This document shows, in pieces, positions 8,247 through 49,902 of a stretch of DNA of 64,000 bases. This DNA comes from Mytilus trossulus. Its lineage: Eukaryota. Below the pieces are notes generated by a model. That model was not told where the DNA came from. It did not search any database and worked only from the letters and a program-made list of their open reading frames with translations. Positions within the stretch are counted from its first letter, which is position 1. The number at the start of each line of letters is the position of its first letter. The translations under genes and the position numbers were made by a program. Where the stretch lies: NCBI RefSeq assembly GCF_036588685.1, contig NC_086381.1, positions 41,106,001 to 41,170,000 on the forward strand, written 5' to 3'.

Positions 8247-9780
8247 ATTCTAAAAGGAATATTTTGAACTTCTGTACTTCGAAGCGGCCCTAAAGAAGTC
8301 ATTCGAAATGTCGCCATTTTATTTTGATGAACAAAAACAGTTTAGGACAATCAGCAGTTCATCAATAAAAAAAGAACAAAAACATTTTAAACTTACTTTT
8401 AGAATGTTTTAATTTAATTTCCTAGCGAGCAACACCAACAAAAATGTCCATTTTGATATCTGGCATTTTTCAAAATTCATATGACGTTGCAATTTCAATT
8501 GTGACGTCAATCATGTGCAGCCAGCCCATGTTCTATTCAATTAGAACATGGCTTTGTACCCAAAGCTAAAGAAGAACGTCATATTAGAACTCAATTTGAA
8601 ACATACCAACTTACCAAACAATAGACACTGTATTTGACCAATTAATAAGGGTGAGAGGATGGGACAAAAACACAAAATCAAAATATTCTTTAGACAGTTT
8701 TCAACCTGCATTCTTATAATCTCATTGGACATAATATCATATAAAAGATGAAGTATGATTGCCAATGAGACAAATATCCAACAAAAACCAAATGATTAAG
8801 ATGTCAACAACCATAGATCACCAGTTAGCCTTCAACAATGAGCAAAACTCATTCAGCAGAGTTTGCCTAAAAAAAAACATATTGATAAAATGTGAATTTA
8901 ATCAATATAATGAAAGATGTTCTGAGATTCTATCAGACAGAGCGTATAGTTATGCTGATTTTGTAGATCAAATTACCACTTCATAGGTCAGTGTGAGTTT
9001 GGTTGGTTTTCTAAGAATTGATAAATTTTCTAATCTGATTCTTTATCTCATTTCCTGGGAAGAATTTAAGGGAAAAGAGCCATTTCCTACAGGCAAAGCA
9101 GTTGCGGTTTCAGTTTGTAATCTGGATTTGTTTTCTCAATTCATTTATGACTTTTGAACAGCTGTTTACTACTGGTGCCTTTATCTATTTCTATTTCCAT
9201 GTTATTTGGTAATGCAGCAGAAGATTTATTTTCTCTTTTATTTGGGGTTTTTATCCTCTGAACCACAAATAAGAGACATTTTATTTTTAAAGAAAAAGGT
9301 ATTCTGTGATGCATTGTGGGTAATACTTTTAGCAGAATACATCAAAACTTTTCAATATCCTGACAATCACCTAACAAAAAAGGAAAACACTTTATGTAAA
9401 TTTTACGCATTGGAAGTGCATTTAACTTCATCAGGAGTGCACAATGCCATAGATTTAAGAGAATATATTTCCTAAACAATGGAAATTCAGCCAGTGGCGT
9501 GACATTATTTTCATTTTAGGTACCAAAACAAAATCTCCCATAATTCTGGATAAGTTTTGAAACAGCTTATTGGTAGATTTTGCCAAGTGCCAACAGGAGT
9601 GATGGAAGTACATTTAGATTGCTAAATACAGGTCTCCTCAAAAGTTGATGCTAATGTCCTTGAATGTACTGATTGCATGGCACTCATCCTCATATTTTAT
9701 TGCATAGATTAACTTTGTCGTATTTGGCACAACATTTTGGATTTTGGATCCTCAATGCTCTTCAACTTTGAACTTGTTTG

Positions 9781-10020
9781 GGCCACACTTAAAAATATTT
9801 TGGTTTGCCCAAAGGTTGAGACAGTGGGAGGTAGGTAGGTATTTCTTTTTTTTCTTCTTCAAAAAAAGAAATTGAAGTATGATATCAGATGTTTATTAGT
9901 CTTCATGCCTATTTGATTGAAAAAAAAATCTTCAAATCAGGACAATAAAAGAATTTGAGTAGGCAGCTTTTTTCTGGGTAGGTAGCGTTTGGGCAAACAA
10001 ACCTATTACTTATTATGGCC
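9781..10020. mobile_element. MITE-like insert inside the retrozyme-like repeat
   Basis: ggcca...tggcc ends with subterminal inverted gtttgcccaaa / tttgggcaaac. Confidence 0.55.
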
Positions 10021-10049
10021 TTGGCTTTATAAATATTTTGTTGATATGA

Positions 10050-10093
10050 GCGTCACTGATGAGTCTTATGTAGACAAAACGCACGACTGGTGT
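10050..10093 (+). ncRNA. Degenerate type I hammerhead ribozyme within a retrozyme-like dispersed repeat (~9700..10130)
   Basis: Helix I GCGTCA/TGGTGT; core CTGATGA; helix II GTCT-tatgt-AGAC; AAAAC in place of GAAAC; GAC in place of the GTC cleavage triplet. Predicted inactive. Confidence 0.7.
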
Positions 10094-12381
10094 ACTACAT
10101 CATAATCCTGGTACCTTTAATAACTATTAATGACATTTTCTCAAATGTTGTGTTGTCCCTTTATGTTACTCATCTTATTTTGTCCCTCTTGATGAGTTAA
10201 GTCTAATGAGGGATGCTTTGTGATTTTTGTAATTGTAGTTCAGTGATCAGGGTTGACTCCAACAAAGAACATGTTTATGTCTGGCACTTAGACCTTGTAT
10301 GGGACATCAAATTGGAATTACAAGATATCTAAATGTAAAGCAATGTGAAGTCATAATTGGACCATTACAATCTGGTGCCCAATGGATTTTTTTCTTTCAA
10401 ATTGTAAATTTTCTTGTTTTTATCAGAAAACAGAAATTCAAAAGTTTATAAATTTTCTGTGGCACAAGCAAATGACCAGGAAATAGATATAAACAGCTTA
10501 TAGTCTATCGGGAATGGCTCTTTTCCTTTAAGTATTCCTCAGGAAATAGATATAAACAGCTTATAGTCTATAGGGAATGACTCTTTTCCTGCAAGTCTTC
10601 CTCAGGAAATGAGATTAACATGATAAAGTTCCCAAAATTTGTCCATTTTCTAGAAAAATAATGCAACATACAATCAAGTTTAAATTAATTACTTCATATA
10701 CAAAATTTGTGTATCAGAAAAACAGATTATTATCTTACTAAAATCTGAGAACAACCAGTATGGTGGTTAAATGGACATGATTTTTTTACTTTTGATCAAT
10801 TTAAGGCTTTTTTAATTTAAAGCTGACTATTATATAGTTTTGAATTTTATTGAAGACAAAGTAAATTATATGTACAATTCCAATCCCCCTTCCCCTTTTG
10901 CGATTATTTGGGGTTTACCTGTCAATTTAAAAATTTTCAATTTAAAGTGTGCTGTTTCAGTGAATAAATACAATAGCTAGTTTTCTTTTTGGAATTTATT
11001 CAATGGAACCTTTACATCTCTCAATTTTTAGTTACACAAAATAATAAAATCCTACTGAATAAAGAAAACATGTACCAACACTCAATAATGACACACATTT
11101 TAAGAGCTAAAATAATTGATTCCACAATTATGCCAAATACAGCCAAATATAAGACAACTGAAGCACAAAAATATGGATTTAATTTGCTCAGTACAGAAAA
11201 AAAGACTTGTAAAATAATTTTTAGCAGTGAATAAACGTACATACATCCAAAGTCATCCAACAACAAACAATAATAAAACATTTAAGCAAATTTTACCCAA
11301 CTATGAAATATATGTCTTGGAGACATAAATAAAGCAGTTTTGTACTATACATGAAAACTAGTGATTAATTTAATGATGTACAAAGAATGCTTTTACATAA
11401 CTCTTCAATTGAATACATTGCTATTGTCCTTTGTGTTGTTTATTCATGGATATTAAAATGTTTTTGAAATTTTGTCAGAAATCAACTTTGAATCACTGTT
11501 TACATCATTATTGAAAATATGTTTTCCACTTGTTTTGGGAGTTAACACATGTATTTTTCACCCCAAAAAAGGTGAAAAGGGTATGTGTGGGGGGTTTTGG
11601 ACTGGGCACATTGATCCTAAATTCAGCTCTGTTGTCGAGCTGACTGTTTATACAGTTATAAGTATTTAGAAGATACTTTAGTACTCTGCGTCATAGATAT
11701 GTTTCTAGTGCTATGTTTTTTTTTTAAATCTTTGTAATTGAAAGATCACACTACTAAATTTAAAGTCAAAAGTATACCCTATTTCAAGTTTGAACTTTTG
11801 AACACTGGTTTTACTACTGTTGCCTTTAAGATACAAGATGTTGACAAACAGAGGATGAGTGCCATGTCATCAGTACATTTTTAACCCTAGCATCATCTCC
11901 TGAGGGGACCTGTATTTGGTCTGTACTAGATAGATATTGGTGCCAATATCCAACATATCCTTATTTAACAGTGGCAATCTAAATGTACTACATCAATCCT
12001 GGCCAACCTTCTTTGCAGAACCTACCAATAAGCTGTTTCAAAATCCAAAGTATTATATGAGATTTCATTGTTAATTACCCTAAAATGAAAATGATATGAT
12101 GTCCTGTCATTGGCTGAACTTCCATTGTTTAAGAAGTTGTTAATGGCAAATAACAAAGTGTTGGTATATTCTCTTGAAAATATTACCCACAATTCATGAC
12201 TTTCTGAAGCAGCTTATTACATGAATTTTTAATATAATCTTTTGAATATATATGAAATATTTTTGATTGAACATTAAACATGCAAGATTCAATTCATCAA
12301 TGATAAATTCAAATATCAGCAATGAAAGATATCTAATAACTTTATGTTTAAAATTGTAAGGTTACTTGATTTGAGATAAAA

Positions 12382-18500: not shown

Positions 18501-21500
18501 TCTTTTACAGATATGTTCCAGTATGAGATCAGTAACTAGTATACTCTTTTACAGATATAATCCAGGATTAGATCAGTAACTACTATACTCTTTTACAGAT
18601 ATGTTCCAGAATTAGATCAGTAACTAGTCTACTCTTTTACAGATATGTTCCAGGATTAGATCAGTAACTAGAATACTCTTTTACAGATATGATCCAGGAT
18701 TAGATCAGTAACTAGTTTACTCTTTTACATTTATGTTCCAGGATTAGATCAGTAACTTGTATGCTCTTTTACAGATATGTTCCAGGATTAGATCAGTAAC
18801 TAGTATACTCTTTATTAGATATGTTCCAGAATTAGATCAGTAACTAGTATACTCTTTAACAGATATGTTCCAGTATTAGACCAGTAACTAGTATACTCTT
18901 CTACATATATGTTCCAGGATTAGATCAGTAACTAGTATACGCTTTATCAGATCTGTTCCAGAATTAGATCAGAAACTTGTATACTCTTTTACAGATATGT
19001 TACAGGATTAGATCAATAACTAGTATACTCTTTAACAGATATGTTCCAGGATTAGATCAGTAACTAGTATACTCTTTTACAGATATGTTCCAGAATTAGA
19101 TCAGTAACTAGTATACTCTTTTACAGATATGTTCCAGGATTCTATCAGTAACTAGTATACTCTTTATTAGATATGTTCCAGAATTATATCAGTAACTAGT
19201 ATACTCTTTAACAGATGTGTTCCAGGATTAGATCAGTAAATATTAGACATTTTTACATAAATGTTCCAGGATAAGATTGGTAACTAGTATACTCTTTATC
19301 AGATATGTTCCAGAATTAGATCAGAAACTTGTATACTCTTTTACAGATATGTTCCAGGATTAGATAAGTAACTAGATATAGTATACTCTTTTACAGATAT
19401 GTTCCAGGATTAGATAAGTAACTAGATATAGTATACTCTTTTACAGATATGTTCCAGGATTAGATCAGTAACTAGTATACTCTTTAACAGATATGTTCCA
19501 GGATTAGATCAGTAACTAGTATACTCTTTATCAGATATGTTCCATAATTAGATAAGAAACTTGTATACTCTTTTACAGATATGTTCCAGGATTAGATCAG
19601 TAACTAGAATACTCTTTTACAGAAATTGTCCAGGATTAGATCAGTAACTAGTATACATGTACTCTTTTACAGATATGTTCCAGGATTAGATCAGTAACTA
19701 GTATACTCTTTTACAGATATGTTCCAGGATTAGATCAGTAACTAGTATAGTCTTTTACAGATATGTTCCAGGATTCTATCAGTAACTAGAATACTCTTTA
19801 TTACATACATGTGAACTTCCCGACGGGAGTACAAAACTCCCGTTTTCAGGGGTCTCCTCCCGTCCTCCCGTTTAGGAGAAAAAACTCCCGTGTATGAAAT
19901 ATTTCATGAATGAAAATTTTCAGACGCCATATTTGATCATTTCTTACTACTGTTCAGGTGTAATTGACACCTGTGTTAAATTTTACCTGTACATCAAAGA
20001 AGATGTATAATTATATGGCCTCACTTGACAGCTTGGGTGTCATACATACTGGTAATCAACGATGTTTACCTCTGGCTAACTGCCGTTGTGTTAAAAAAAA
20101 AACGATGTGTATTGGGAATATTGAAATACATTTTTGTTACTTCCCTTTGTTTTATCCTGTTTTCAGTTATTTTGCTTTTAAAAATGTAAATTGTAAAAAG
20201 ACTATAAATGATTAATATTTTCATCAAATAATCATAAAAGGATGTTGATTAAATGAATTTAAATGTTTTGGGACAAATAAAAAAATATAAATTTATAAAT
20301 TAATTTTGCAATTTAGACCTCCTTTCAAGAATGAAATTGGAGTTTATATATTAAATCTGTTTAAAATGTCTTATATTTACATTGAGCTAGAAATAGCAGA
20401 ACAATATACACAGATTAAGTCTTTTTTAAGTTTTCTTCAAATATGACTTTAATAATGCTGAAAAGCCATGCAGTACCACTGTTAGTAGTGTTTGTTATTT
20501 TTATAAATCATTTATGATATTGCAAATATACATTAAGAGCTTATTTCTTTCTTATTTGTCTATACATTTACCAATGATAAGGAGATGGAGACATGAATAA
20601 AAATCTATACAGATAAGATGAATAAATCCAATGATTAATTTGCAAGCAGTGAACAATCATTTATCAAAAACAAAACAAAACAAGAAACAGATTCTTCTTA
20701 ATATTTTAATTTATTCAAATAGAAAGGCAATAAGGGTACATGTACTATAAACATATAACAATTTGATGGATATTTGAAGATAAAACACAATTTCTACATC
20801 ATATGGTTACATTTACGACAAAATTTATGTCGATAAAAAACCTCCTGATCTGAGTCCTAATCTCCTGACCAAAATTTCCAAATCTCCTGATCTGAGTTTC
20901 ACAGTCCATCACATGTATGTTATTATATATGTTCCAGAATTAGATCAATAACTAGTATACTCTTTAACAGATATGTTCCAGGATTAGATCAGTAACTATT
21001 AGACATTTTTACATAAATGTTCCATGATAAGATCATTAACTAGTATACTCTTTATCAGATATGTTCCAGAATTAGATCAGAATCTTGTATACTCTTTTAC
21101 AGATATGTTCCAGGATTAGATCAGTAACTAGTACTCTTTTACAGATATGTTCCAAGATTAGATCAGTAACTAGATATAGTATACTCTTTTACAGATATGT
21201 TCCAGGATTAGATCTGTAACTAGTATATTCTTTTACAGATATGTTCCAGGATTAGATCAGTAACTAGTATACTCTTTTACATATATGTTCCAGGATTGAA
21301 ACAGTAACTAGTATACTCTTTTTCAGGTGGGTTCCAGGTTTAGATATCACAGCAGTCTGTAATATCCTTAATATACAAAAGGTCTGTTTTATACTCAAAC
21401 CATCTTTTGTATGTTCACCAGTCAAAGCAATTGATAAGGCAGCTGAGAAACTTGCGGATTTTGCTGTCAAACTGGTCAAAGATATCGATAAATGGTTTCA

Positions 21501-25537: not shown

Positions 25538-26168
25538 GCACTATGTAACTAATTATATGCACAATACTGAATAACTATATTTGTTTATTAGATTAAGTTT
25601 GCTAGTCTCAAATATGTTTTGTGTATCTCTTCGGAGAATTACAAGTCACTTAGTTAATTATACATAAGACCGCAACTGTTCTATAAACCCTACATATCAT
25701 TCTTTTCATCCTTTTCTGTAATGTCTCAAATTATTTTAAATAAATAATCAACCCATATTGATAAAAATGGCTTATAAAAATCTGAATTAGTTACAACTTG
25801 AAACTATGGTAAGGGAGACAACTCTGTCTGGCTTTAATGTTTTTCATTGCCATTGTATCTTAAGTTGACAACAATATAGACCAATCTGATTTTAATTTTA
25901 CTTGTCATTACACTATGATGTCATAACATGTCGAAATTCAAATAACTGACCTAAAATTTCCATTTCCCTCAAAGTTTTGTCCAAAAATTATACATGAGCC
26001 ACAAGATTATCCAAAAGGCTTTTTTGGTTATTTTTATTTCACAATTTTGCATTCAATGCAAGAAATTGGAAGTCCTAATGCCAAAATATAAGACAACATT
26101 TTAAAATTTAAATAATGATGTCCAATAGACTAAAGTACAAGAAAAAAGGCAGCAAGATACACTAGAGA

Positions 26169-27142
26169 GTTAGGTAATCAAAACAACTAGACAATGGGAG
26201 GAAACACTCTAGTTTGGGCATACAGAAACAAGAAAAATAGGAGGGTGAATAACAGTTAGGTAATCAAAACAACTAGACCATGGGAGGAAACACTCTAGTT
26301 TGGGCATTACAGAAACAAGTTAAAATAGGAGGGTGAATAACAGTTAGGTAATCAAAACAACTAGACAATAGGAGGAAACACTCTAGTTTGGGCATTACAG
26401 AAACAAGTTAAAATAGGAGGGTGAATAACAGTTAGGTAATCAAAACAACTAGACAATAGGAGGAAACTCTCTAGTTTGGGCATTACAGAAACAAGTTAAA
26501 ATAGGAGGGTGAATAACAGTTAGGTAATCAAAACAACTAGACCATGGGAGGAAACACTCTAGTTTGGGCATTACAGAAACAAGTTAAAATAGGAGGGTGA
26601 ATAACAGTTAGGTAATCAAAACAACTAGACAATAGGAGGAAACTCTCTAGTTTGGGCATTACAGAAACAAGTTAAAATAGGAGGGTGAATAACAGTTAGG
26701 TAATCAAAACAACTAGACAATAGGAGGAAACTCTCTAGTTTGGGCATTACAGAAACAAGTTAAAATAGGAGGGTGAATAACAGTTAGGTAATCAAAACAA
26801 CTAGACAATGGGAGGAAACACTCTAGTTTGGGCATTACAGAAACAAGAAAAAATAGGAGGGTGAATAACAGTTAGGTAATCAAAACAACTAGACAATAGG
26901 AGGAAACTCTCTAGTTTGGGCATTACAGAAACAAGTTAAAATAGGAGGGTGAATAACAGTTAGGTAATCAAAACAACTAGACAATAGGAGGAAACTCTCT
27001 AGTTTGGGCATTACAGAAACAAGTTAAAATAGGAGGGTGAATAACAGTTAGGTAATCAAAACAACTAGACAATGGGAGGAAACACTCTAGTTTGGACATT
27101 ACAGAAACAAGTTAAAATAGGAGGGTGAATAACAGTTAGGTG
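26169..27142 (+). repeat. 88-bp tandem repeat, ~11 near-identical copies
   Basis: Unit gttaggtaatcaaaacaactagacaataggaggaaactctctagtttgggcattacagaaacaagttaaaataggagggtgaataaca. Confidence 0.95.
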
Positions 27143-27339
27143 ATCACATAAAGAAGACAATAATGGAGGGTCAACTAGAGTTACCGTCTTGAACCTGGCT
27201 CTAATCAGCGACCTCTCAATCTTCCTTATGCAGATAGAGAAATTTTAGTTGCTATTGTTTTTATTGGCTCCTTTCATTGTATTAATTTTTAGTATCACTT
27301 ATTATCTGTAAACCTCAAAATGCCAAGGGAAAATGATAA

Positions 27340-31880: not shown

Positions 31881-33398
31881 CACCCCATGATTAACTATGC
31901 AACCACATGCAACATTCGGCCTTGAGCATGGATCCTTCACAAAAGTAAAGTATGTGCATTTAGTGTCATACTTATATATATATATTCTAACCAAAAAATG
32001 TACTATGATCAATAAATATGTGTGGACCAATTCTCTCTTCCTTTTAATCAAGGATCAAAAGACAATGAAATTCACTCAATGATCCTCAATAACAGACAGT
32101 GCATTCCACCTGAATAGAGACACAGCACTCACTCAATTACAGACACTGCACAAAAATAGTAACAGAAACTTCAGGTAAAAACACATCAACATGGAGACTT
32201 TGGTTTTTTTTTCTTTGTAGTTTAAAGTTTGCTTAGGTACTTCATTTGATGCCAATGAAATCATGCCAATTTTAAAGACCTTGAAGGTTGAAAAAGGGTA
32301 ACAAAAATACTAAGTATTACTTGTACCTGAACTTTTCCCTTCCAGCAATAAAAAGCTTGTGTGATTTCTCAATTTGGGATCACAGGATATGTAAATACAT
32401 AGCGAGGTAAAATCAAGTAAGGGGTATTAAATCTGACACCCATTATACATCAAAGAACCGTAGCAAGAACATCTGTGGGATCTGTATTTTCCTGACTTGA
32501 TACTGACATTGTCTTATGTAGAAAATGGTGAATTTAACCTGGTTTTATATCTAGCTAAAACTCTCACTTGAAAGACAATCGTATAAAGTTACTTTGTAGT
32601 GAAAAAGATGCGTGAACAAAACAAACAGGCTTTATAGGTAAAAATGTCCAAAATAGGGGTACAGGAGTAGACATTGTGTTATTATCATGATCACAATAAA
32701 AAAAAACCAGACATGTAATAAAGAAACCAAAAAGGCATATAGAAAAAGCCCATTAACAAAAATGAATTTGTCTCTGTTTAAATTTGTAAGGTCTTTAATT
32801 TGTATTTAAGAAATTAATAAAATACAAAATTTAATTAATATCCTGTTACAGGAAACAATACAATAGAAATACTTCAACACAGGAGTATTTTAACTAGTTG
32901 TATCCGTAGGAAATGTCTTCTTTCCTCAGGAAAGATTCACATAGTTAAAGAAAATCTATATCATTTTCGGTAAGGAGATTGTCTTTAAGGAAAAAAACCA
33001 AACAACCTGCTAGCCATGATATGAATTGATCACTTCCATAACCTATAATTATCAGAAATATGCATTACCTTATGATATGCCACTGCTGGTGGACATTACC
33101 CTCCCCTCCACATACATAATATAACAAGGCCAGTTATGTCGACACTCTTAGACTTATGACATGAAATATTATACTTTCATATTCTGAAAAGTCAGTATTT
33201 ATAAGAACACTTAAGAGAAGTTTCTCTTCCCAAAGTTATATATTGGCTTTTTCATTTTTAGCATAACATTTTGGAATTGTATTATATTTGAAGTTTCAAT
33301 TAGTATTATTTCAGCACCACTGGTGAGTCTTTTGTAGACAAAAGTACATTTGGTGCACTTATTTACAAGCCTGATATCTTTGGTAAGTCTTTTGTAAA

Positions 33399-34585
33399 AA
33401 CAAGAGGCTCTCAAGAGCCTGAATCGCTCACCTTAATTTTTTTGGTTAAATCTCTCATCAATGATTATTTTGGCTTTTCAATTTAATCCAATGTTCTTTG
33501 AATTGTCCTATTTTCTTCAACAGCCAAAAAAAAAATCATTTTCTCCTATGTTCTATTTCAGCCATAGGAGCTATGGTTCTTGACATACAACAAGGAAATA
33601 AAATATAAAATTTATACTAGATACTCTGAAACTCATTTAGCCTAAGTTTGGCTAAAATTGATACAGCAGTTTCAAAGGAGAAGATTTTTTAAAGTAAGTC
33701 AACATGATGAACAAATTGTGAAAAAAGTCTTTAAAGGGCAATAACTCCTTAAGGGGTCAATTGACAATTTTGGTCATGTTGACTTATTTGAAGCTCTTAC
33801 TTTGCTGAACATTATTGCTGTTTACAGTTTATCTGTATCTATAATAATATTCAAGATAATAAACAAAAACAGCAAAATTTCCGTAAAATTATCAATTCAG
33901 GGGCAGCAACCCAACAACAGGTTGTCTGATTCATCTGAAAATTTTAGAGCAGATAGATCTTGACCTGATAAACATGATACCCATGTCAGATTTGCTCTAA
34001 ATGCTTTGGTTTTTGAGTTATAAGCCAAAAACTGCATTTGACCCCTATGTTCTATTTTTAGCAATGGCGACCATGTTTGTTGATAGATCATAACTTCGGA
34101 TACACTTTATAAACTAGATACCCTAAGGAACATTCAGTTAAAGTTTGGAAGTATTTGGCCCAGTAGTTTCAGAGGAGAAGATTTTTGTAAAAGATTACTA
34201 AGATTTACGAAAAATGGTTAAAAATTGACTATAAAGGGCAATAACTCCTAAAGGGGTCAACTGACCATTTCGGTCATGTTGACTTATTTGTAAATCTTAC
34301 TTTGCTGAACATTATTGCTGTTTACAGTTTATCTCTATCTATAATAATATTCAAGATAATAACCAAAAACAGCAAAATTTCCTTAAAATTACCAATTCAG
34401 GGGCAGCAACCCAACAAAGGGTTGTCTGATTCATCTGAAAACATTCAGTTAAAGTTTGGAAGTATTTGGCCAAGTAGTTTCAGAGGAGAAGATTCTTGAA
34501 ATAGTTTACGACGACAGACGACGGATGACAACGGACGCCAAGTGATGGCATAAGCTCACTTGGCCCTTCGGGCCAGGTGAGCTAA
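33399..34585 (+). mobile_element. Helentron-like non-autonomous element, family 2, inserted in the 61-bp satellite
   Basis: aacaagaggctctcaagagcctga start, internal duplicated cores, (gac)n microsatellite, terminal hairpin agctcacttggcccttcgggccaggtgagct. Confidence 0.75.
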
Positions 34586-36149
34586 AAATAAATTTGGTGC
34601 ACTAAATTATAAGCCTGATATCTATGGTTAGTCCTATGAAGGTAAAAAGTACATTTAGTGCAATAAATCATAAGCCTCAAATCTTTGGTGAGTCTTGTAG
34701 ACAAAAAGTACATTTGGTGCATTAAATCATTTATAAGCCTGATATCTTTGGTTAGTCATTTGTTGACAACAAGTACATTTGGTGCACTAAATCATAAGCC
34801 TGGTATCTTTGGTGAATCTTTTGTAGACAAAAAGTACATATGGTGCATTAAATCATAAGCCTGATATCTTTGGTTAGTCATTTATTGACAAAAATTATAA
34901 GCCTGGTATCTTTGGCGAGTCATTTGTAGACAAAAGAACATTTGATGCTCTTAATTATAAGCCTGATATCTGTTCTGAGGTTTTTGTACACAAAAAGTAT
35001 GTTTGGTGTACAAAATCATAAGACTGATATCTTTGGTTAGTATTTGGAAACAAAAAGAACATTTGAAGTGCTTAATTATAAGCCAGGTATCTTTGGTTAG
35101 TTTTTTGTAGACAAAAAGGACATTTGGTGTTCTAAATTATAAGCCAGGTATCTTTGGTTATTCTTTTGTAGACAAAAAGTACATTGGGTGCACTAAATTA
35201 TAAGCTTGGCTTCTTTGGCGAGTCTTTTGTAGACCAACAGTACATTGGGTATACTAAATTATAAGCCTGATATCTTTGGTTAGTCTATTGTAAACAAAAA
35301 GAACATTTGGAGTACTAAATTATAAGCCTGGTATCTTTGGTGAGTCTTTTGTAGACAAAAAGTACATTTGATGCACTAAATTATAAGCCAGGTATCTTTG
35401 GTTAGTCTATTGTAAACAAACAGAACATTTGGAGTACTAAATTATAAGCCTGGTATCTTTTTTGAGTCTTTTGTAGACAAAAAGTACATTTGATGCACTA
35501 AATTATAAGCCAGGTATCTTTGGTTAGTCTATTGTAGACAAAAAGAACATTTGATGCACTAAATTATACACCTGGTATCTGTGGTGAGTCTTTTGTAGAC
35601 AAAAAATACATTTGGAGTACTAAATTATAAGCCTGGTATCTTTGGTGAGTCTTTTGTACACAAAAAGAACATTTGGTGTACTAAATTATAAGCCTGGCAT
35701 CTTTGGTGAGTCTTTTGTACACAAAAAGCATATTTGGAGTACTAAATTATAAGCCTGGTATCTTTGGTGAGTCTTTTGTAGAGAAAAAGTACATTTGGAG
35801 TACTAAATTATAAGCCTGGTATCTTTGGTGAGTCTTTTGTACACAAAAAGTACATTTGGAGTACTAAATTATAAGCCTGGTATCTTTGGTGAGTCTTTTG
35901 TACACAAAAAGTACATTTGGAGTACTAAATAATAAGCCTGGTATCTTTGGTGAGTCTTTTGTAGACAAAAAGTACATTTGGAGTACTAAATTATAAGCCT
36001 GGTATCTTTTGTGAGTCTTTTGTACACAAAAAGTACGTTTGGAGTACTAAATTATAAGCTTGATATCTTTGGCGAGTCTTTTGTAGAAAAAAAGAACATT
36101 TGGTGCTCTAAATTATAAGCCCATACCCGTAGCCAGGGGGGGTTCGGAC

Positions 36150-39100
36150 TGTTAACTACTGTGTTTTCTATTATTTTGTTTATATTATTTTCAGGTACAT
36201 GTTACTTGGTGGGTTTAGTTTATAGTTTAGTAAAGACATTAGAATAGACAATAGAATTATATTGAAGCCATAAATAGCCAATCAACAGTGGTAGCAGAGC
36301 TTATAAAGATGGCAACAGCACCTAGTTACAAGAACCCACCAGGTTTGACCAAAGATAAAAGTTATCAACAATGGAAAAATGAAGTTAAAATGTGGCAACT
36401 CGTGACCGATCTTGACAAGAAGAAGAGAGGTTTGGCTTTAGCTTTGTCGCTACAAGGAAAACCAAGGGAAGTAGCCCTAGAAGTAGATCCCACTGATTTA
36501 AATGTTGATGAAGGAGTAGATAAGCTGATAACTGAGTTGGACAAGCTTTTTGAGAAGGATAAAATAGATCAGGCTTATGCTGCATATACTGTATTTGATA
36601 AGTTCCACAGAATAGATGATTTAAGCATGTCTGATTATATCATTGAGTTTGAGCAGAGATACAATAAATGTAAGAAATATGAAATGGTACTCCCAGATGC
36701 AATTTTAGCTTTTAAACTTCTTGACAATGCTGGGTTAAGTCAAAGTAATCGTCAGCTGGCATTAACTGCATGTTCTGACCTTAAATTCGACACAATGAAA
36801 TCTGCTTTGAATAGGATATTTGCATCAAAATCTCAAAATTTTCCTGGAGAACAAGACTCTGTTGTAACTGTTAAAGAAGAATCAGCTTTTGTCAGTGATG
36901 GGTATTATCAGAGAGGTCGAAGTTCAAGAAGAAATTTTCCTCGTAATCGAGCTGATAGATCAACCAACTCTAGTAGACTTAAGACAAAAATGAATCCAGT
37001 CTTTAATGGAAATGTCTCAAGATGTAAAATATGTGATTCCAAATTTCATTGGGTCAAGGATTGTCCTCACAAGCAGCTCGATGTGAATTTAACAGAACAT
37101 GAGAGTGATGAGTTAAATGAAATTGTAAATATAACATTATTAACCTCTGCACAAGAATTTAAGCCTCTAACAGTGTTTGTCGCAGAAGCCTACAATGCTG
37201 CAGTTATTGATACTGCATGTTCCAAGACAGTGTGTGGTTCTAAATGGTTATATGAATTTGTAGAATCACTTGATCCAGGACTTGATCAACTTACTTGTAA
37301 TGAAAGTCATGTACCATTCAAATTTGGTGATGGACAAACAGTATATTCATATCAGAAAGTGAAAATTCCAGCACTAATTGGGTCAGTTAAGTGCTCAATT
37401 GAAACAGAAGTGGTGGATTGTGAAATACCGTTATTGTTAAGTAAAACCTCTCTGAAAAGAGCAAGCACTATCCTAGATCTCAGAAATGACAAGGTTACCA
37501 TGTTTGGACAGTTAGTGGATGTAAACCTAACTTCAAGTGGTCATTACTGTATCAACATTAAAGACAAGCAATGCACGAACAGAAATAAGAATGAGAGTGA
37601 GGAGGTTTTGATCATTGACACAAAATTACCTTTTAAGAAGAAAAAGGAGATTCTTTTAAAGTTGCATAAGCAGTTTGGACATGCATCATCAGATAAACTT
37701 TTATCCCTGTTACAAAGTGCTGGTTCTGTTGATTCTGAAACAAAGACCATTCTTAAAGATATCTGCACAAAGTGTTTAATTTGCCATAAGTTCAAGCATC
37801 CAAAAGCTAAACCAGTGGTTGCCTTTTCACATGCAAATGATTTCAATCAAATTGTGGCAATGGACCTTCATGAAATTGACCATAACTTTTATTATCTACA
37901 TGTTATTGACTTATTCAGCAGATTGAGTGCAGCTGCAATCATCAGAAGAAAGGACTCTAAAGTCATTGTAGATAAGTTCATGCAGATATGGGTGGGCGTT
38001 TATGGAGCACCTGAAGTTGGTGTTTACACAGATAATGGAGGTGAATTTAATTCACAGATATTTAGAGACATGGCAGAAAACTTAAACATGTCAGTTAAAA
38101 CAACAGCAGGATATAGTCCTTGGTCCAATGGTGTAGTAGAAAGACAAAACGCAACGCTTACAGAAACAATCAATAAAATGAGAGAAAGCTCTAACCTTTC
38201 ATGGGAGACTTCCGTCAGTTGGGCAGTCCATGCTAAGAACAGTTTGTTGAATGTCTATGGCTACAGTCCATATCAAATAGTTTTTGGAAGGAACCCAAAC
38301 ATGCCAACGTCTATAGTTAACAAGCCTCCTGCATTAGAAGGTACAACAATTAGTAATATTATGGGAAAGCATTTAGTTGGCTTACATGAAGCTAGAAAAG
38401 CATTTATTGCCGCAGAATCCTCTGAGAAAGTAAGAAGGGCACTACGTAAGCAAATCCGGCCTTCAGGAGAAAAATTCAAAAATGGTGACAAAGTTTTCTT
38501 CCTCCGAGACAATCAGTGGAAAGGACCAGGCTGGGTAATTGGTCAAGATAACGTAGTTGTTTTTGTAAGATATGGAGGTACATATGTCCGTGTACATGAA
38601 AGTAGATTAAAAAGAGACATTGATGTTGAAGGAAAACAAAAGATTATTCATAAGCATACAGCAAAGTCAACTCCTGTGCGTAAGCCTCAAGCTGCAACAT
38701 ATAACAACACTGAACCAGATCATGACTTAGTATACTATGAGAGTGACGATGAAGAGCCTCATCAAAATGATACTGAGAATGATGAAAATCAAGAAAATGT
38801 TGAAGAATCTGCAGACGAAAGTGCTGATCAAGATGATAGTCATGCTGGTAGCTTGAATGGTAGTTTGAATGGTGAAGATGGTCATGAATCTGAAGGGAGA
38901 GACAGTTTTGATTTGGAAAATCCGGCAGATAATGATATACATGAGGAAAGTATGGAACATAATCCTGAGTCCCAGGAAAATGATTGTATGAAATTAAAGA
39001 AGGATCAGATAGTGAATTTTAAAATCCCTGGTGAAAATGACACAAGAGAAGCAATAATTTTAGGCAGGGCAGGAAAAGCTACAACTGTTAAAAAGAGCTG

Positions 39101-40976
39101 GTACAATATAGAATACAATCAGCCAGAAAATATGAGAGGTGATCAGATATCAATTGATCTAAGAACAGTCAATGATTTGAAAGTTGTTAACCAGTCAGAT
39201 GAAATGAATGAAGATGTATTTTTAAGCGATATTGATTTTACTGAGGCTAGAGAGGCAGAACTGGATAACTGGAGAAAGCACAATGTTTTTGAAGAAGTTG
39301 AAGACAATGGTCAAAACTGTATTTCAACAAGATGGGTTTACACTATGAAAGAATTAGAGAACGAATTTCATAGAAAAGCTAGATTGGTAGCAAAAGGTTT
39401 TGAAGAAGACAGTCTAGATGAAATACCAAAGAATTCACCAACATGTGAAAAGCAGTCTCTACGACTAATTTTATCAATTATTGCTAGTAAAAGATGGTCA
39501 ATTAATTCTGTGGACATTAAAACTGCTTTTCTTCAAGGAGAGAAAATGCAAAGAGAAGTCTACTTGAGACCTCCTAAAGAAGTTAAAGCAACTGGTAAAG
39601 TCTGGCGCCTTAACAAATGTGTATATGGTCTTGTTGATGCATCCTTAAAGTGGTATGAAAAAGTTAAAGCAACATTGCTAGATTGTGGAGGAACAGTGTC
39701 CAAAATTGATTCAGCAGTTTTTTATTGGTATAATGAAAAAGGTTTGACTGGTGTCCTAGCAGTTCATGTAGATGACTTTCTTTGGGCAGGATCCAGTACC
39801 TTTGAGAAAAGTGTTGTGTCCAGAATTAGGGATATGTTCAAGGTAGGGAAAGAATCCTGTGAGTCTTTCAAATATTTAGGTCTTGACCTCAGCCAAGAAA
39901 ATGAAACTATTGTTCTCAGCCAGCAAGACTATGTCAGAATGTTGAAGACTGTTTCAATAGATAAAGACAGAGTTAAAACATCTCCTCTTTCATCATCAGA
40001 ACAGACACTATTGAGGTCAAAAATAGGACAATTATTATGGTTAGCAAGACAAACACGTCCAGACATTGCGTTTGATGTTGCTGCTATTTCATCAAAAATT
40101 AAGTCTAGCACTATTGAAGATCTAAAGAAAGTCAATAAAATAATTAGGAAGGTGCAAAACGATCCCGTTTCACTGCAATTCCAGAATCTTGGACATGATG
40201 TGAAATTTATGTTGTTCAGTGATGCATCATTTGGAAATCTTCCAGATGGTGGAAGTCAGGGTGGTTATGTTGTGTTTTTGATGGGCGATGATGGTAAAGT
40301 GAAACCCTATCACTTGGCAGTCTAAGAAATTAAGAAGGGTTGTACGTAGTACTTTGGCAAGTGAAGCCTTGGCCTTAGCTGATGGTGTGGACTGTGTTAT
40401 ATCTTTAGCAGCTCTGTTTAAGGAATTAATGCACAATGAGAACGATTTGATGCATACTCCAGTAGATTGTTTCGTTGACAACAAAGACCTTTATCATGCA
40501 ATATACTCTGATAAACCTGTTGGAGAAAAGAGATTGAGGGTGGAGATCAATGCAATAAAGCAATTACTTCAAGGTGGAGAGCTTAAAGAAGTTAAATGGA
40601 TTCAGACAAATGAACAAATCGCCAATGTTCTTACAAAGCATGGTGCTTCTGGACAAGACATCTTACGTTGTTTTGAAAAAGGACTTTTGAATTCAAGCCT
40701 TTTGTAATTAGTGCAACTGACAATAAAAAAAAGGAGAAAAGATCAGATAAATACTTGATACTATGACATTTTAATTGCCTTCATTTTTATTTTTATTTGG
40801 ACATTAACATTTCTAGTGAAAAGAGAAAAGGATTAGATTGTTAACTACTGTGTTTTCTATTATTTTGTTTATATTATTTTCAGGTACATGTTACTTGGTG
40901 GGTTTAGTTTATAGTTTAGTAAAGACATTAGAATAGACAATAGAATTATATTGAAGCCATAAATAGCCAATCAACA
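36150..40976 (+). mobile_element. Full-length Ty1/copia LTR retrotransposon, GalEa-clade-like
   Basis: Identical 138-bp LTRs (36150..36287, 40839..40976; TGTT...AACA). 5-bp TSD CGGAC. PBS TGGTAGCAGAGC (complementary to the initiator Met tRNA 3' end). PPT gaaaagagaaaagga before the 3' LTR. Domain order Gag-PR-IN-RT-RH. Confidence 0.95.
36309..40707 (+). CDS. Gag-Pol polyprotein of the copia element, with one +1 frameshift at ~40302-40304 in RNase H
   Basis: Zn knuckle CKICDSKFHWVKDC; protease AVIDTAC; integrase HKQFGH..C..C, MDL, TDNGGEF, VER; RT KARLVAKGF, VDIKTAFLQG, HVDD; RNase H SDAS. Removing one A from gtgaaaccct restores NPITWQSKKLRRVVRSTLASEALAL and joins ORF 40354..40707. Confidence 0.9.
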
Positions 40977-41200
40977 CGGACGACCCCCCCTTGAAAACAA
41001 AAGTCAATGTTCTGTTCGAATTGTGACTGTTAAAAACAAGTTTGTGAGTCCAATGAACCCCCCTTTGGAAATTCCTGGCTACGGGCCTGAAGCCTGGTAT
41101 CTTTGGTGAGTCTTTTGTACACAAAAAGAACATTTGGTGTACTAAATTATAAGCCTGGTATCTTCGGTGATTCTTTGGTAGACAAAAAGGCCATTTGGAG

Positions 41201-41396
41201 TGTCAACGTATATTTGTTCCATCTGGAAACTTTATTATAAACAATGTCATAATACTTGTACCTGTTGGAACAAATATTCTATAATATTTAGTCCATTAGG
41301 AACATCTACTGTAATATTTATTCCTGTGGAAATAATATTCCAGAATAGTTTTTCCATTTGGAACTTATATTATAAAGGAACTTTTATTCCGTGACA
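41201..41396. mobile_element. ~200-bp TGTCA...TGACA element (duplicated at 44495..44690)
   Basis: Short terminal inverted repeats; interrupts a satellite monomer; third copy at 50238..50448. Confidence 0.8.
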
Positions 41397-44245
41397 CTTA
41401 ATTATAAGCCAGGTATCTTTGGTGAGTCTTTTGTAGACAAAAAGGACATTTGGAGTACTAAATTATAAGCCTGGTATCTTTGGTGAGTCTTTTGTAGACA
41501 AAAAGCATGTTTGGAGTACTAAATTATAAGCCAGGTATCTTTGGTGAGTCTTTTGTAGACAAAAAGCATGTTTGGAGTACTAAATTATAAGCCTGGTATC
41601 TTTGGTGAGTCTTTTGTAGACAAAAAGCATGTTTGGAGTACTAAGTTATAAGCCTGGTACCTTTGGTGAGTCTTTAGTAGACAAAAAGTACATTTGGAGT
41701 ACTAAATTATGAGCCTGGTATCTTTGGTGAGTCTTTTGTACACAAAAAGCATGTTTGGAGTACTAAACTATAAGCCTGGTATCTTTGGTGAGTCTTTTGT
41801 TGACAAAAATTACATTTGGAGAACTAAATTATAAGCCTGGTATCTTTGGTGAGTCTTTTGTAGACAAAAAGCATGTTTGGAGTACTAAATTATAAGCCAG
41901 GTATCTTTGGTGAGTCTTTTGTAGACAAAAAGCATGTTTGGAGTACTAAATTATAAGCCTGGTATCTTTGGTGAGTCTTTTGTAGACAAAAAGCATGTTT
42001 GGAGTACTAAATTATAAGCCTGGTATCTTTGGTGAGTCTTTTGTAGACAAAAAGTACATTTGGAGTACTAAATTATGAGCCTGGTATCTTTTGTGAGTCT
42101 TTTGTACACAAAAAGCATGTTTGGAGTACTTAATTATAAGCCTGGTATCTTTGGTGAGTCTTTTGTTGACAAAAAGTACATTTGGAGTGCTAAATTATAA
42201 GCCTGGTATCTTTGGTGAGTCTTTTGTACACAAAAAGCATGTTTGGAGTACTAAATTATAAGCCTGGTATCTTTGGTGAGTCTTTTGTAGACAAAAAGTA
42301 CATTTGGAGTACTAAATTATAAGCCTGGTATCTTTGGTGAGTCTTTTTTAGACAAAAAGTACATTTGGAGTACTAAATTATAAGCCTGGTATATTTGGTG
42401 AGTCTTTTGTAGACAAAAAGGACATTTGGAGTACTAAATTATAAGCCTGATATCTTTGGTGAGCCTTTTGTAGACAAAAGGCATGTTTGGTGTACTAAAT
42501 TATAAGCCTGGTACCTTTGATAACTATCATCCTAATTTAAGTATTCTGACAAAGGGACAACAAAGAAATATATTTCTGTAAAAGTTGGCTATATATAGTA
42601 TGTATTCCAACTAAATAGTTTACGACGACAGACGACGACAGACGACGGATGACGACGGACGCCAAGTGATGGCATAAGCTCACTTGGCCCTTCGGGCCAG
42701 GTGAGCTAAAAATAAATTTGGTGCACTAAATTATAAGCCTGATATCTATGGTTAGTCCTATGAAGGTAAAAAGTACATTTAGTGCAATAAATCATAAGCC
42801 TCAAATCTTTGGTGAGTCTTGTAGACAAAAAGTACATTTGGTGCATTAAATCATTTATAAGCCTGATATCTTTGGTTAGTCATTTGTTGACAACAAGTAC
42901 ATTTGGTGCACTAAATCATAAGCCTGGTATCTTTGGTGAATCTTTTGTAGACAAAAAGTACATATGGTGCATTAAATCATAAGCCTGATATCTTTGGTTA
43001 GTCATTTATTGACAAAAATTATAAGCCTGGTATCTTTGGCGAGTCATTTGTAGACAAAAGAACATTTGATGCTCTTAATTATAAGCCTGATATCTGTTCT
43101 GAGGTTTTTGTAGACAAAAAGTATGTTTGGTGTACAAAATCATAAGACTGATATCTTTGGTTAGTATTTGGAAACAAAAAGAACATTTGAAGTGCTTAAT
43201 TATAAGCCAGGTATCTTTGGTTAGTTTTTTGTAGACAAAAAGGACATTTGGTGTTCTAAATTATAAGCCAGGTATCTTTGGTTATTCTTTTGTAGACAAA
43301 AAGTACATTGGGTGCACTAAATTATAAGCTTGGCTTCTTTGGCGAGTCTTTTGTAGACCAAAAGTACATTGGGTATACTAAATTATAAGCCTGATATCTT
43401 TGGTTAGTCTATTGTAAACAAAAAGAACATTTGGAGTACTAAATTATAAGCCTGGTATCTTTGGTGAGTCTTTTGTAGACAAAAAGTACATTTGATGCAC
43501 TAAATTATAAGCCAGGTATCTTTGGTTAGTCTATTGTAAACAAACAGAACATTTGGAGTACTAAATTATAAGCCTGGTATCTTTTTTGAGTCTTTTGTAG
43601 ACAAAAAGTACATTTGATGCACTAAATTATAAGCCAGGTATCTTTGGTTAGTCTATTGTAGACAAAAAGAACATTTGATGCACTAAATTATACACCTGGT
43701 ATCTGTGGTGAGTCTTTTGTAGACAAAAAATACATTTGGAGTACTAAATTATAAGCCTGGTATCTTTGGTGAGTCTTTTGTACACAAAAAGAACATTTGG
43801 TGTACTAAATTATAAGCCTGGCATCTTTGGTGAGTCTTTTGTACACAAAAAGCATATTTGGAGTACTAAATTATAAGCCTGGTATCTTTAGTGAGTCTTT
43901 TGTAGAGAAAAAGTACATTTGGAGTACTAAATTATAAGCCTGGTATCTTTGGTGAGTCTTTTGTACACAAAAAGTACATTTGGAGTACTAAATTATAAGC
44001 CTGGTATCTTTGGTGAGTCTTTTGTACACAAAAAGTACATTTGGAGTACTAAATAATAAGCCTGGTATCTTTGGTGAGTCTTTTGTAGACAAAAAGTACA
44101 TTTGGAGTACTAAATTATAAGCCTGGTATCTTTTGTGAGTCTTTTGTACACAAAAAGTACGTTTGGAGTACTAAATTATAAGCTTGATATCTTTGGCGAG
44201 TCTTTTGTAGAAAAAAAGAACATTTGGTGCTCTAAATTATAAGCC

Positions 44246-44383
44246 CATACCCGTAGCCAGGGGGGGTTCGGACGACCCCCCCCCTTGAAAACAAAAGTCA
44301 ATGTTCTGTTCGAATTGTGACTGTTAAAAACAAGTTTGTGAGTCCAATGAACCCCCCTTTGGAAATTCCTGGCTACGGGCCTG
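44246..44383. mobile_element. MITE (138 bp), intact copy; the copy at 36122..41089 is split by the copia element
   Basis: TIRs catacccgtagccagg / cctggctacgggcctg; apparent TSD aagcc. Confidence 0.85.
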
Positions 44384-46011
44384 AAGCCTGGTATCTTTGG
44401 TGAGTCTTTTGTACACAAAAAGAACATTTGGTGTACTAAATTATAAGCCTGGTATCTTCGGTGATTCTTTTGTAGACAAAAAGGCCATTTGGAGTGTCAA
44501 CGTATATTTGTTCCATCTGGAAACTTTATTATAAACAATGTCATAATACTTGTACCTGTTGGAACAAATATTCTATAATATTTAGTCCATTAGGAACATC
44601 TACTGTAATATTTATTCCTGTGGAAATAATATTCCAGAATAGTTTTTCCATTTGGAACTTATATTATAAAGGAACTTTTATTCCGTGACACTTAATTATA
44701 AGCCAGGTATCTTTGGTGAGTCTTTTGTAGACAAAAAGGACATTTGGAGTACTAAATTATAAGCCTGGTATCTTTGGTGAGTCTTTTGTAGACAAAAAGC
44801 ATGTTTGGAGTACTAAATTATAAGCCAGGTATCTTTGGTGAGTCTTTTGTAGACAAAAAGCATGTTTGGAGTACTAAATTATAAGCCTGGTATCTTTGGT
44901 GAGTCTTTAGTAGACAAAAAGTACATTTGGAGTACTAAATTATGAGCCTGGTATCTTTGGTGAGTCTTTTGTACACAAAAAGCATGTTTGGAGTACTAAA
45001 CTATAAGCCTGGTATCTTTGGTGAGTCTTTTGTTGACATAAAGTACATTTGGAGAACTAACTTATAAGCCTGGTATCTTTGGTGAGTCTTTTGTGGACAA
45101 AAAGCATGTTTGGAGTACTAAATTATAAGCCAGGTATCTTTGGTGAGTCTTTTGTAGACAAAAAGCATGTTTGGAGTACTAAATTATAAGCCTGGTATCT
45201 TTGGTGAGTCTTTTGTAGTCAAAAAGCATGTTTGGAGTACTAAATTATAAGCCTGGTATCTTTGGTGAGTCTTTTGTAGACAAAAAGTACATTTTGAGTA
45301 CTAAATTATGAGCCTGGTATCTTTGGTGAGTCTTTTGTACACAAAAAGCATGTTTGGAGTACTAAATTATAAGCCTGGTATCTTTGGTGAGTCTTTTGTT
45401 GACAAAAAGTACATTTGGAGTGCTAAATTATAAGCCTGGTATCTTTGGTGAGTCTTTTGTACACAAAAAGCATGTTTGGAGTACTAAATTATAAGCCTGG
45501 TATCTTTGGTGAGTCTTTTGTAGACAAAAAGTACATTTGGAGTACTAAATTATAAGCCTGGTATCTTTGGTGAGTCTTTTTTAGACAAAAAGTACATTTG
45601 GAGTACTAAATTATAAGCCTGGTATCTTTGGTGAGTCTTTTGTAGACAAAAAGGACATTTGGAGTACTAAATTATAAGCCTGATATCTTTGGTGAGCCTT
45701 TTGTAGACAAAAGGCATGTTTGGTGTACTAAATTATAAGCCTGGTACCTTTGATAACTATCATCCTAATTTAAGTATTCTGACAAAGGGACAACAAAGAA
45801 ATATATTTCTGTAAAAGTTGGCTATATATAGTATGTATTCCAACTAAATAATATGTGTTACATTGACATAAATTATTACAATAAAATATCAAATATTTTT
45901 TCCTGGTGATAATTCATTACAAATATATTTGTGAACTGTTTAGGCAATTTTTACATAAAGTTTAACTTTGTCTGATGAATTGTTTTTGAACAGTAATATC
46001 TCTAAAAAAAA

Positions 46012-48076: not shown

Positions 48077-49902
48077 ATGACACATGCAGACAAAACACCA
48101 GGGAGTTCAAAACTTGAATCCATCAAGAGAAAGTCTGATGACCCACCCTCATACAATGATGCCATGAGATTTCCTGACAATTACCACAATACATTTCCTG
48201 ACAAACTATTTAAAAGTGAACGCCATACATTTACCTGCCTGAAGGCTATATTTGGTATCTTTTCTGGAATATTGACTGGTGGAATACTGTTTGTTCTGCT
48301 AATCTACAGTTTTGGTTTTGCCTTGGATATAGCTGGATATATATCTATTGGAGTGACAGCCTTAGCATGTCTAGGTCTAGCACTATCTGTCCATGTCCGC
48401 TGTATCGTGGTACTGATGATTCCTAGTCTATTTACTGGTAGAGGAAGGGTAGCCATCTTGGCAGTTATATTGGGACTCCTGTTATCAAGACCAATCAAAA
48501 ACATCTCTATAAATACTTCAGAAGTATCCAGAAGTATGGCCTGTAGTACCGAACTCTTTCAGAATCAGTCACACTCTCTCAGACAACAGCTCCAGGTACC
48601 AATAGAGCAGATTAAAGTAGCCTTGGGTAAACAGGCAGAGGATATAAAGATGTTAGGAACAGCAATAGATAAAGCCATAGAACCAATTTATAATGCTCTT
48701 GTTGCTGTTAAAAAAGGTGTCAAGTTAGTGAGTGGTGCATTGGATACTGCTTCACAGGTAAAATATTAAGCCAGTGTTGCAGTGTATTCAGATTCACAAG
48801 TAAAATTTAAGAACCTTAGTGAGCAGGCTCATATACCCCACATCCCCACATTGTCATTGGAGAAATTAAATAAGTGTAAGGAAAAAAATTGTATAAGAAA
48901 AAATATTGAATAATAATTTCCTGTCAATATCCACATCTACATGCATAGTATGTCCTTATTATTTACAAAATTTCATGAAATTCTGTTGTGTGGTTTCAGA
49001 GTAGTTGAGATGACAAACTGATGCAGAAGTACATTGAAGCAAATAAGTTCAAAGGGGTGTAACTCCTAGAAAAAAAAATGAATCAAAATTTGTTGTCGAA
49101 ATGCACATCTACGTAGTATGTCCTTTATATACAAAGTTTCATGAAATTCTGTTGTGTGGTTTGAGAGGAGTTGAGGTGACAAACTGTGGAAGTAGTACCT
49201 TAAAGCAAATAAGTTCAAACAGGTGTAACTCCTAGAAAAAAAATTGAATCATAATTTCCTGTTGGTATGCACATCTACATAGTATGTCCTTATTATCTGA
49301 AAAGGTTTCGTGAAATTCTGTTGTGTGGTTTGAGAGGAGTTGCGATGACAATCTGTTGCAGTAGTTCATTAAAGTAAATAAGTTCAAAGGGGCGTTACTC
49401 CTAGAAAAAAAATTGAATCATAATTTCCCGTCGATATGCACAACTACATAGTATGTCCTTGTTATCTGAAAAGGTCTCGTGAAAATCTGTTGTGTGGTTT
49501 GAGAGGAGTTGCGATGACAAACTGTTGCAGTAGTACACTAAAGTAAATAAGTTCAAAGGGGCATAACTCCTAGAAAAAAAATTGAATCGCAATTTCCCTT
49601 CAACATGCACAACTACATAGTATGTCCTTATTAAATGAAAAGGTTTCGTGAAATTCTGTTGTGTGGTTTGAGAGGAGTTGCGATGACAAACTGTTGCAGT
49701 AGTACGTTAAAGTAAATAAGTTCAAAGGGAAAAAAATTGAATTGCAATTTCCCGTCGATATGCACAACTACATAGTATGTCAATATTATCTGAAAAGGTT
49801 TCGTGAAATTCTGTTGAGTGGTTTGAGAGGAGTTGCGATGACAAGAAACAGGACTGACGGACGGACGGACTGACGGACGGACGGACGGACGGACTGACGG
49901 AT

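Follow-up and report, generated by a model that had tools for sequence, protein, structure and literature searches.

How did a 12.5-kb tract of 61-bp tandem units, the first of which still has the outline of a hammerhead ribozyme, arise in a mussel chromosome? The tract lies at 33314–45768 of a 64,000-nt stretch of the Mytilus trossulus genome (NCBI RefSeq assembly GCF_036588685.1, contig NC_086381.1, positions 41,106,001 to 41,170,000, forward strand; hereafter the window, to which all positions refer). A first-pass annotation, made from the letters alone, had described it as satellite DNA formed when the hammerhead segment of one retrozyme copy expanded in place to ~90 catalytically dead monomers. 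The analysis reported here leads to a related reading: the array is very probably a local 61-bp minisatellite formed within one old copy of a hammerhead-bearing repeat, likely begun by DNA-level mispairing of 4-base repeats, likely after the copy had decayed, and predicted to be non-cleaving.

The array and its parent repeat

At 33314–33356 the window reads exactly as the annotation quotes the first monomer; the nominal end of the array is 45768, but the quoted end motif actually closes it at 45760, and a variant of the same motif closes a dispersed hammerhead-like copy at 10127 (the 10-kb copy). A search of the window with a profile of the 61-bp unit gave 94 matches within 33321–45750 and a single one elsewhere, at 10058–10117 in the 10-kb copy (E = 1.6e-11), so the likeness between the two is not due to chance. 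When the 10-kb copy was compared with the array by blastn, 82 matches were obtained, the best being the last monomer (84.5% over 71 nt, E = 7e-17), which bears out the kinship that had been proposed. Monomers make up 5526 of the 12455 bases of the interval (44%), or ~90.6 monomer lengths; the remainder consists mostly of a long terminal repeat (LTR) retrotransposon and three other insertions (Table 1). The matches fall into two blocks (48 in the first, 46 in the second), each with ~2.9 kb of monomer sequence. Over 3.2 kb (about 3219 sites) these differ by 14 mismatches, one monomer-length gap of 61 nt and a 2-nt gap; as assembled, block duplication has raised the number of monomers from about 48 to 94. 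The figure of ~90 monomers therefore stands as a length, but not as the outcome of one expansion in place, and since the second block is nearly identical to the first, roughly half of the monomers are not independent. The statistics given below refer to the 85 near-full monomers among the 94 matches, the 9 partial ones being excluded. The monomers are homogenised and show short higher-order patterns.

The parent is a high-copy dispersed repeat, which we take to be abundant in Mytilus, bearing a type I hammerhead. A motif taken from the 10-kb copy and ending before the GAAA box retrieved three loci in metagenome contigs (L001–L003), all with both core boxes, and a 3′-end motif retrieved a fourth, 5′-truncated locus in genome contigs (L004). 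The first scan of genome contigs gave no locus and the second gave this one, while three viral scans gave none. The search patterns left the G of GAAA unspecified; GAAA was found in four of four loci and both core boxes in three, L004 beginning at a damaged first box. L001 and L002 can be drawn as type I hammerheads with a 6-bp helix I, a 4-bp helix II, a 2-bp helix III closed by a palindromic tetraloop, and the cleavage triplet GUC; in L003 the core is complete and helix I is weakened. The minimum-energy folds of L001 and L002 differ from this drawing, showing rod-like pairing, and covariation among five hammerhead-like sequences was not significant (reached by 160 of 500 shuffles). Judged by the sequence of these copies, the family possesses all the parts of a hammerhead, namely both core boxes, the cleavage triplet and three helices. 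L001 lies in a marine metagenome contig adjoining bacterial-looking coding sequence, and L004 in a contig of a cyanobacterial metagenome-assembled genome; these bacterial and metagenomic records are probably host contamination or chimeras.

Contigs of four public runs (X1, X2, X12 and X20) were aligned to the 3′ end of the array (7947, 4227, 37 and 117 contigs, respectively). They stand in for a genome-wide consensus, and the set that could be placed is probably biased towards the subfamily nearest the array. The consensus of their loose ends is an intact hammerhead core in the DNA runs X1 and X2 (hundreds of contigs) and is degenerate in X12 and X20 (5 and 14 contigs). Most contigs lose their match at 45758–45760 and continue into unrelated sequence, which places the 3′ end of the family there, some 39 nt beyond the cleavage site. 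The X1 and X2 contigs also include pieces of this array locus without differences. X20 is a mollusc RNA run, and its 117 contigs on the family 3′ end show neither strand, circularity nor transcription. At 45746–45760, other contigs carry short tandem duplications of the family 3′ tail whose periods differ from 61 nt (33 nt, 36 nt and longer), and the family 3′ end may duplicate often and by more than one route.

Sequence comparison supports the view that the array sits inside one old family copy, with a decayed 5′ part before it and the family 3′ end after it. The 250 nt upstream of monomer 1 are colinear in similarity with the upstream part of L003 and include a 14-nt exact match to it at 33081–33094, while none of 456 control tiles exceeded 11 nt. 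By alignment score, tested with three queries, no tile reached the best query and the other two ranked 6 and 88 of 456; against shuffles the three gave 0/500, 0/500 and 18/500. This homology comes from pairwise tests. Offsets put the founder at about 330 nt, or at about 360 nt if there was a deletion near the ribozyme (an estimate). The proposed origin from the ribozyme segment of one repeat copy thus survives: the core is intact in copies outside the window and in the X1 and X2 consensus, the monomers align to the family, and the 5′ flank appears to be a decayed part of the same family.

The 10-kb copy retains the first core box and has lost the GAAA box, whose G lies in a CpG dinucleotide, which can explain this separate loss. 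The Rfam check proposed in the annotation brought a weak Hammerhead_3 match on this copy (23.1 bits, E = 0.023), below the gathering score, and no hammerhead match at E up to 10 in 33000–36200, the portion of the array searched. Nowhere in the window did an Rfam match attain its gathering score, and other matches on the 10-kb copy and on 33000–36200 were dismissed as far below theirs. From its sequence, the 10-kb copy would be a dead cousin of the array and not its source. The notion that the two are paralogues carried along by gene duplications was unsupported, no shared flank being found.

Loss of the ribozyme and growth of the array

The hammerhead-like topology is confined to monomer 1. 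In all other monomers the junction replaces C3 and the 5′ strand of helix I by 3′-end sequence, so that the native strand, and with it the hammerhead outline, survives in the first monomer alone; in the minimum-energy fold of that monomer (z = –2.2) helix I is present and helix II absent. In 80 of the 85 near-full monomers not one helix I pair is formed at the junction; a variant monomer and its duplicate show six contiguous pairs formed with linker sequence, and helix III has at most one pair in all 85. Neither core box was found in any of them: CTGANGA is absent from the + strand of 33314–45768, and the G position of GAAA is A in 83 monomers and C in 2. A strict core pattern gave nine matches over the window (4.5 expected), none inside the array. 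The array monomers thus fall outside the definition of a type I hammerhead in their boxes as well as in the helices around the core, and the description of them as hammerhead units does not hold. Their description as catalytically dead fares better, since the loss of both boxes from every near-full monomer predicts an array without self-cleaving activity. In hammerheads, G12 is the general base. Core mutations inactivate or slow these ribozymes, according to a passage in PMC8490949 that cites Ruffner 1990.

Helix II had been said to be mostly retained. It is whole in 41 monomers, has three of its four pairs in another 41 and two in the remaining 3, but this retention is not above background, and no meaning in it is supported. 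Helix II sites were not favoured: they carried 3.75 differences per site, against 3.30 elsewhere (p = 0.23). Covariation was calculated with ungapped monomers, 36 of the 44 near-full ones in block 1, and 43 of 500 shuffles attained the same level. On these grounds selection on helix II was rejected, its variation being like that of the rest of the monomer. A typical monomer and a dimer folded no better than shuffles (z = 0.21 and 0.09).

The limits of the unit point to how the array began. The unit corresponds to the interval between two TGAT tetramers in the parent, one in the first core box and the other near the 3′ end. These are exactly 61 nt apart in L002 and 60 nt apart in L001, which has a 1-nt deletion. 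The majority monomer is identical to the parental interval at 49 of 61 sites with no gap, and the switch from 3′-type to 5′-type letters is located inside the tetramer; only 2.6–3.2% of junctions placed arbitrarily in the parent have microhomology of at least 4 nt. All five CpG sites of the parental interval are altered in the array, just 2 of the 85 monomers retaining any CpG there, which points to decay at the DNA level. Since the altered core boxes and CpGs are states common to all monomers, the ribozyme was likely dead before the array expanded. Mean pairwise divergence between monomers falls from 5′ to 3′ (0.189, 0.098 and 0.071; Spearman –0.52, p = 0.0003), which fits polar growth.

These results are consistent with the following course of events. 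A family unit of ~330–360 nt, whose homology is seen from 33061 onward, would have been inserted by Penelope-type reverse transcription. The copy would then have decayed, its five CpGs and both core boxes changing before amplification, and the TGAT-to-TGAT interval would have been duplicated, at the junction described, by slippage or unequal exchange. The array would next have grown, perhaps in a polar manner, to about 48 units, which are most alike at the 3′ end, and taken up three insertions. The doubling of the 3.2-kb block, with an LTR element in one copy, is present in the assembly and, if biologically real, would come last.

Several observations weigh against this course of events. The microhomology is only 4 nt long, was found post hoc, and is below the 5–10 bp of the published model; moreover, in place of the parental TGAT the monomers have TGGT, and fewer bases may have matched when the duplication took place. 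Later homogenisation could mimic a decay shared before expansion. Helix I of monomer 1 is fully Watson–Crick and better paired than that of the modern parent, from which it differs by four changes, all compatible with pairing, two of them CpG-type and two unexplained; it may reflect an older subfamily, or chance. The homology of the 5′ flank is modest, one query ranking 88 among the 456 tiles, and nhmmer missed the flank with all three queries. The lower ranks of two queries, together with these misses, leave the 5′ part of the founder with moderate support.

Competing explanations and known systems

A tandem array ending where its parent family usually ends might also stem from RNA: reverse transcription of a 61-nt mini-retrozyme, either rolling-circle or template-jumping, would have yielded a multimer that was inserted already in tandem, a route that has been suggested for the arrays of non-LTR retrozymes. 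Retrozyme units down to 51 bp and arrays of up to 300 units are reported in a preprint (bioRxiv 10.64898/2026.07.22.740005). This origin is nevertheless highly improbable, and already largely refuted by the data above: the core-killing and CpG-type changes common to all monomers would leave no self-cleaving unit, divergence declines along the array instead of being uniform, and a single founder 5′ part precedes it. Very unlikely, too, is that the locus is an outlying member of a genuine satellite family whose 61-bp unit forms large arrays elsewhere in the genome. About 48 homogenised units with higher-order patterns might suggest one, as might the presence of the unit in contigs of X1 and X2, runs labelled as different organisms. 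Against this, both ends of the founder are found at this locus, and the monomer motif appears in no paper of the searchable open-access literature. Summed contig depth in X1 was ~50–140× that of the flank in monomer-specific bins and >10,000× at the parent 3′ end, a hint only, depth being no copy number. The term satellite DNA does not suit what is seen here, one locus where about 48 units are doubled and broken up by insertions and where nothing indicates a genome-wide family.

The doubling itself is a different matter. That two haplotypes, with and without the LTR element, were assembled in tandem, so that the count of about 94 units is an artefact, is unlikely but deserves the most weight among these alternatives; the 14 differences over about 3219 sites, plus the LTR element, are allele-like, whereas the 5-nt microhomology at the junction between unrelated flanks is often seen in real tandem duplications. 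The origin of the unit would be unaffected. Least probable of all is a structural or regulatory function that has preserved the array, for instance if the units acted as small hairpins in the transcript of a neighbouring gene. It does lie 1.4 kb downstream of a DC-STAMP-domain exon, the last coding exon of a gene of the cluster described below, on the same strand, and at least three of the four helix II pairs are present in 82 of the 85 monomers. Yet neither excess conservation nor covariation was found, folding is no better than in shuffles, and four insertions have been tolerated. The RNA run X20, like X12, lacks contigs over most of the unique 3′ flank, which proves nothing, since contigs cannot show absence.

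The preferred reading, of a minisatellite begun by mispairing at the TGAT pair, has a bolder form, in which that pair makes the hammerhead segment a recurrent rearrangement hotspot and the genome holds many independent 61-bp arrays and matching deletions. This we consider improbable. A deletion in L003 that ends at the second TGAT is the single near-reciprocal case (minus strand, about 235–250: the hammerhead segment is deleted up to that tetramer and the next unit follows head-to-tail). Were the hotspot real, the rearrangement would be a built-in off-switch of the ribozyme that seeds new satellites, and a whole set of satellites would then have arisen independently from an ancestor that is known.

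Minisatellites derived from transposable elements can start at short direct repeats, of 5–10 bp in the model of Ahmed and Liang (2012, PMC3389668). Those derived from Alu, as described there and in a review (PMC9659126), are like the present array in that a sub-segment of one repeat copy, bounded by direct repeats, expands in place, with polar growth and with both ends of the parent copy still flanking it. The array differs in having a hammerhead-bearing parent, in that the ribozyme itself was amplified, and in its 4-nt repeat, as against the 5–20 bp counted there. By its sub-segment homology, flanking parent ends and short direct repeats at the unit boundaries, it would be classed with these minisatellites.

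The parent family resembles, by description, the non-LTR retrozymes of M. galloprovincialis, for which Cervera and de la Peña (2020, PMC7229834) give a unit of 350–390 bp. The likeness lies in a type I hammerhead, high copy number, the estimated unit of 330–360 nt, head-to-tail continuation in L003 and presence in a mollusc RNA run. The array, in contrast, has a unit of 61 bp without either core box or helix I, which cannot be that of a retrozyme. Even for the parent, a tandem retrozyme is represented by one head-to-tail case, that of L003, with internally deleted units; most contigs end at the 3′ terminus, and the unit length is an estimate. Alternatively, the parent copy could be a fragment of a Penelope pseudo-LTR. 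Penelope-like insertions are described as carrying a 30–40-bp tail (PMC8557442), and the ~39 nt between the cleavage site and the family 3′ end (45721–45760) are close to that length.

The preprint of Li, Clavereau and Pollet cited above (bioRxiv 10.64898/2026.07.22.740005) presents non-LTR retrozymes as local amplifications of the termini of Penelope-like elements, and attributes hammerhead-bearing minisatellites (units of 51–972 bp, up to 300 copies) to local amplification of terminal sequence and unequal crossover. The arrays described there need complete hammerheads in consecutive units; here none of 85 has one, and such a screen would miss the array. More generally, screens for hammerhead tandem repeats that require intact cores overlook dead derivatives. 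The satellites of newts, cave crickets and schistosomes (PMC7229834; W-elements, PMC8490949) are likewise tandem hammerhead DNA, with mutated, inactive copies in schistosomes, but as described in those sources the hammerhead is one part of a longer unit that is transcribed, and it cleaves in many copies, whereas the unit here is a ribozyme fragment mutated in all copies.

Neither the array nor any dead-hammerhead minisatellite was found described in the open-access library, whose searchable main texts (supplements, including those of PMC7229834 and the preprint, lie outside that scope) also lack the parent and monomer motifs. The instance thus seems unreported, while its kind is already known: minisatellites derived from transposable elements and hammerheads in tandem DNA are both in print, and no new ribozyme function is at hand. 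What the locus offers is a legible minisatellite birth: ancestor and junction, the succession of decay and expansion, and the insertions that followed are readable in one place.

Insertions and neighbourhood

The features of the locus are collected in Table 1. The 1.18-kb interspersed repeat is presumably Helentron- or HINE-like. The LTR retrotransposon has its coding region in two frames (36255–40325 and 40303–40707) and, its LTRs being identical, is probably recent; the sequence after its 5′ LTR resembles what we take to be a GalEa primer-binding site.

Table 1. Features of the array locus and the dispersed copy (window positions)
Feature	Position	Strand	Remarks
Dispersed family copy	9701..10127	+	240-bp insert at about 9781–10020; first core box intact at 10056–10062; GAAA box and cleavage triplet mutated
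Putative decayed 5′ part of founder copy	33061..33313	+	Start estimated from offset in L003
Monomer 1, type I hammerhead remnant	33314..33356	+	Helix I of 6 bp, helix II of 4 bp, helix III reduced; mutations in both core boxes
Array part 1, block 1	33321..36121	+	27 profile matches; 5′-end monomers oldest and most diverged; monomer 2 split by insertion
Interspersed repeat, 1.18 kb, inside monomer 2	33401..34583	+	Internal repeats, 3′ palindrome
Short inverted-repeat element	36122..41090	.	In a monomer, 5-bp target duplication; split by LTR element; unsplit copy at ~44246–44384
LTR retrotransposon, 4.8 kb	36150..40976	+	Integrase before reverse transcriptase (copia order); identical 138-bp LTRs; 5-bp target duplication; block 1 only
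Array part 2, block 1	41091..42527	+	21 profile matches; contains 200-bp other repeat; closes with parent family 3′ end
Other repeat, 200 bp, within array part 2	41201–41399		
Tandem duplicate of 34508–42617 minus LTR element	42632..45850	+	46 profile matches; 5-nt microhomology junction near 42612–42617
Terminal monomer and parent family 3′ end	45690..45760	+	Second TGAT and parental letter at monomer position 58 kept

Between 2267 and 52500 the window holds a tandem cluster with four large DC-STAMP-domain exons (at 6574, 21268, 30579 and 51169). Ahead of two of these stand SH3-domain exons (2267 and 28544), and ahead of the other two, related exons that have no Pfam match (15528 and 47882). 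Two paralogue types alternate, and the closest proteins, 60–71% identical, are unnamed. Five other, unrelated tandem arrays are present at 4097–5352, 16172–16825, 18046–19799, 20927–21345 and 26168–27146 (periods 28, 41, 44, 44 and 88), and the region seems prone to tandem expansions. The 41-bp array is a second readable minisatellite birth: it starts where the 15528 exon ends, and the paralogue has a two-unit counterpart at 48726–48806.

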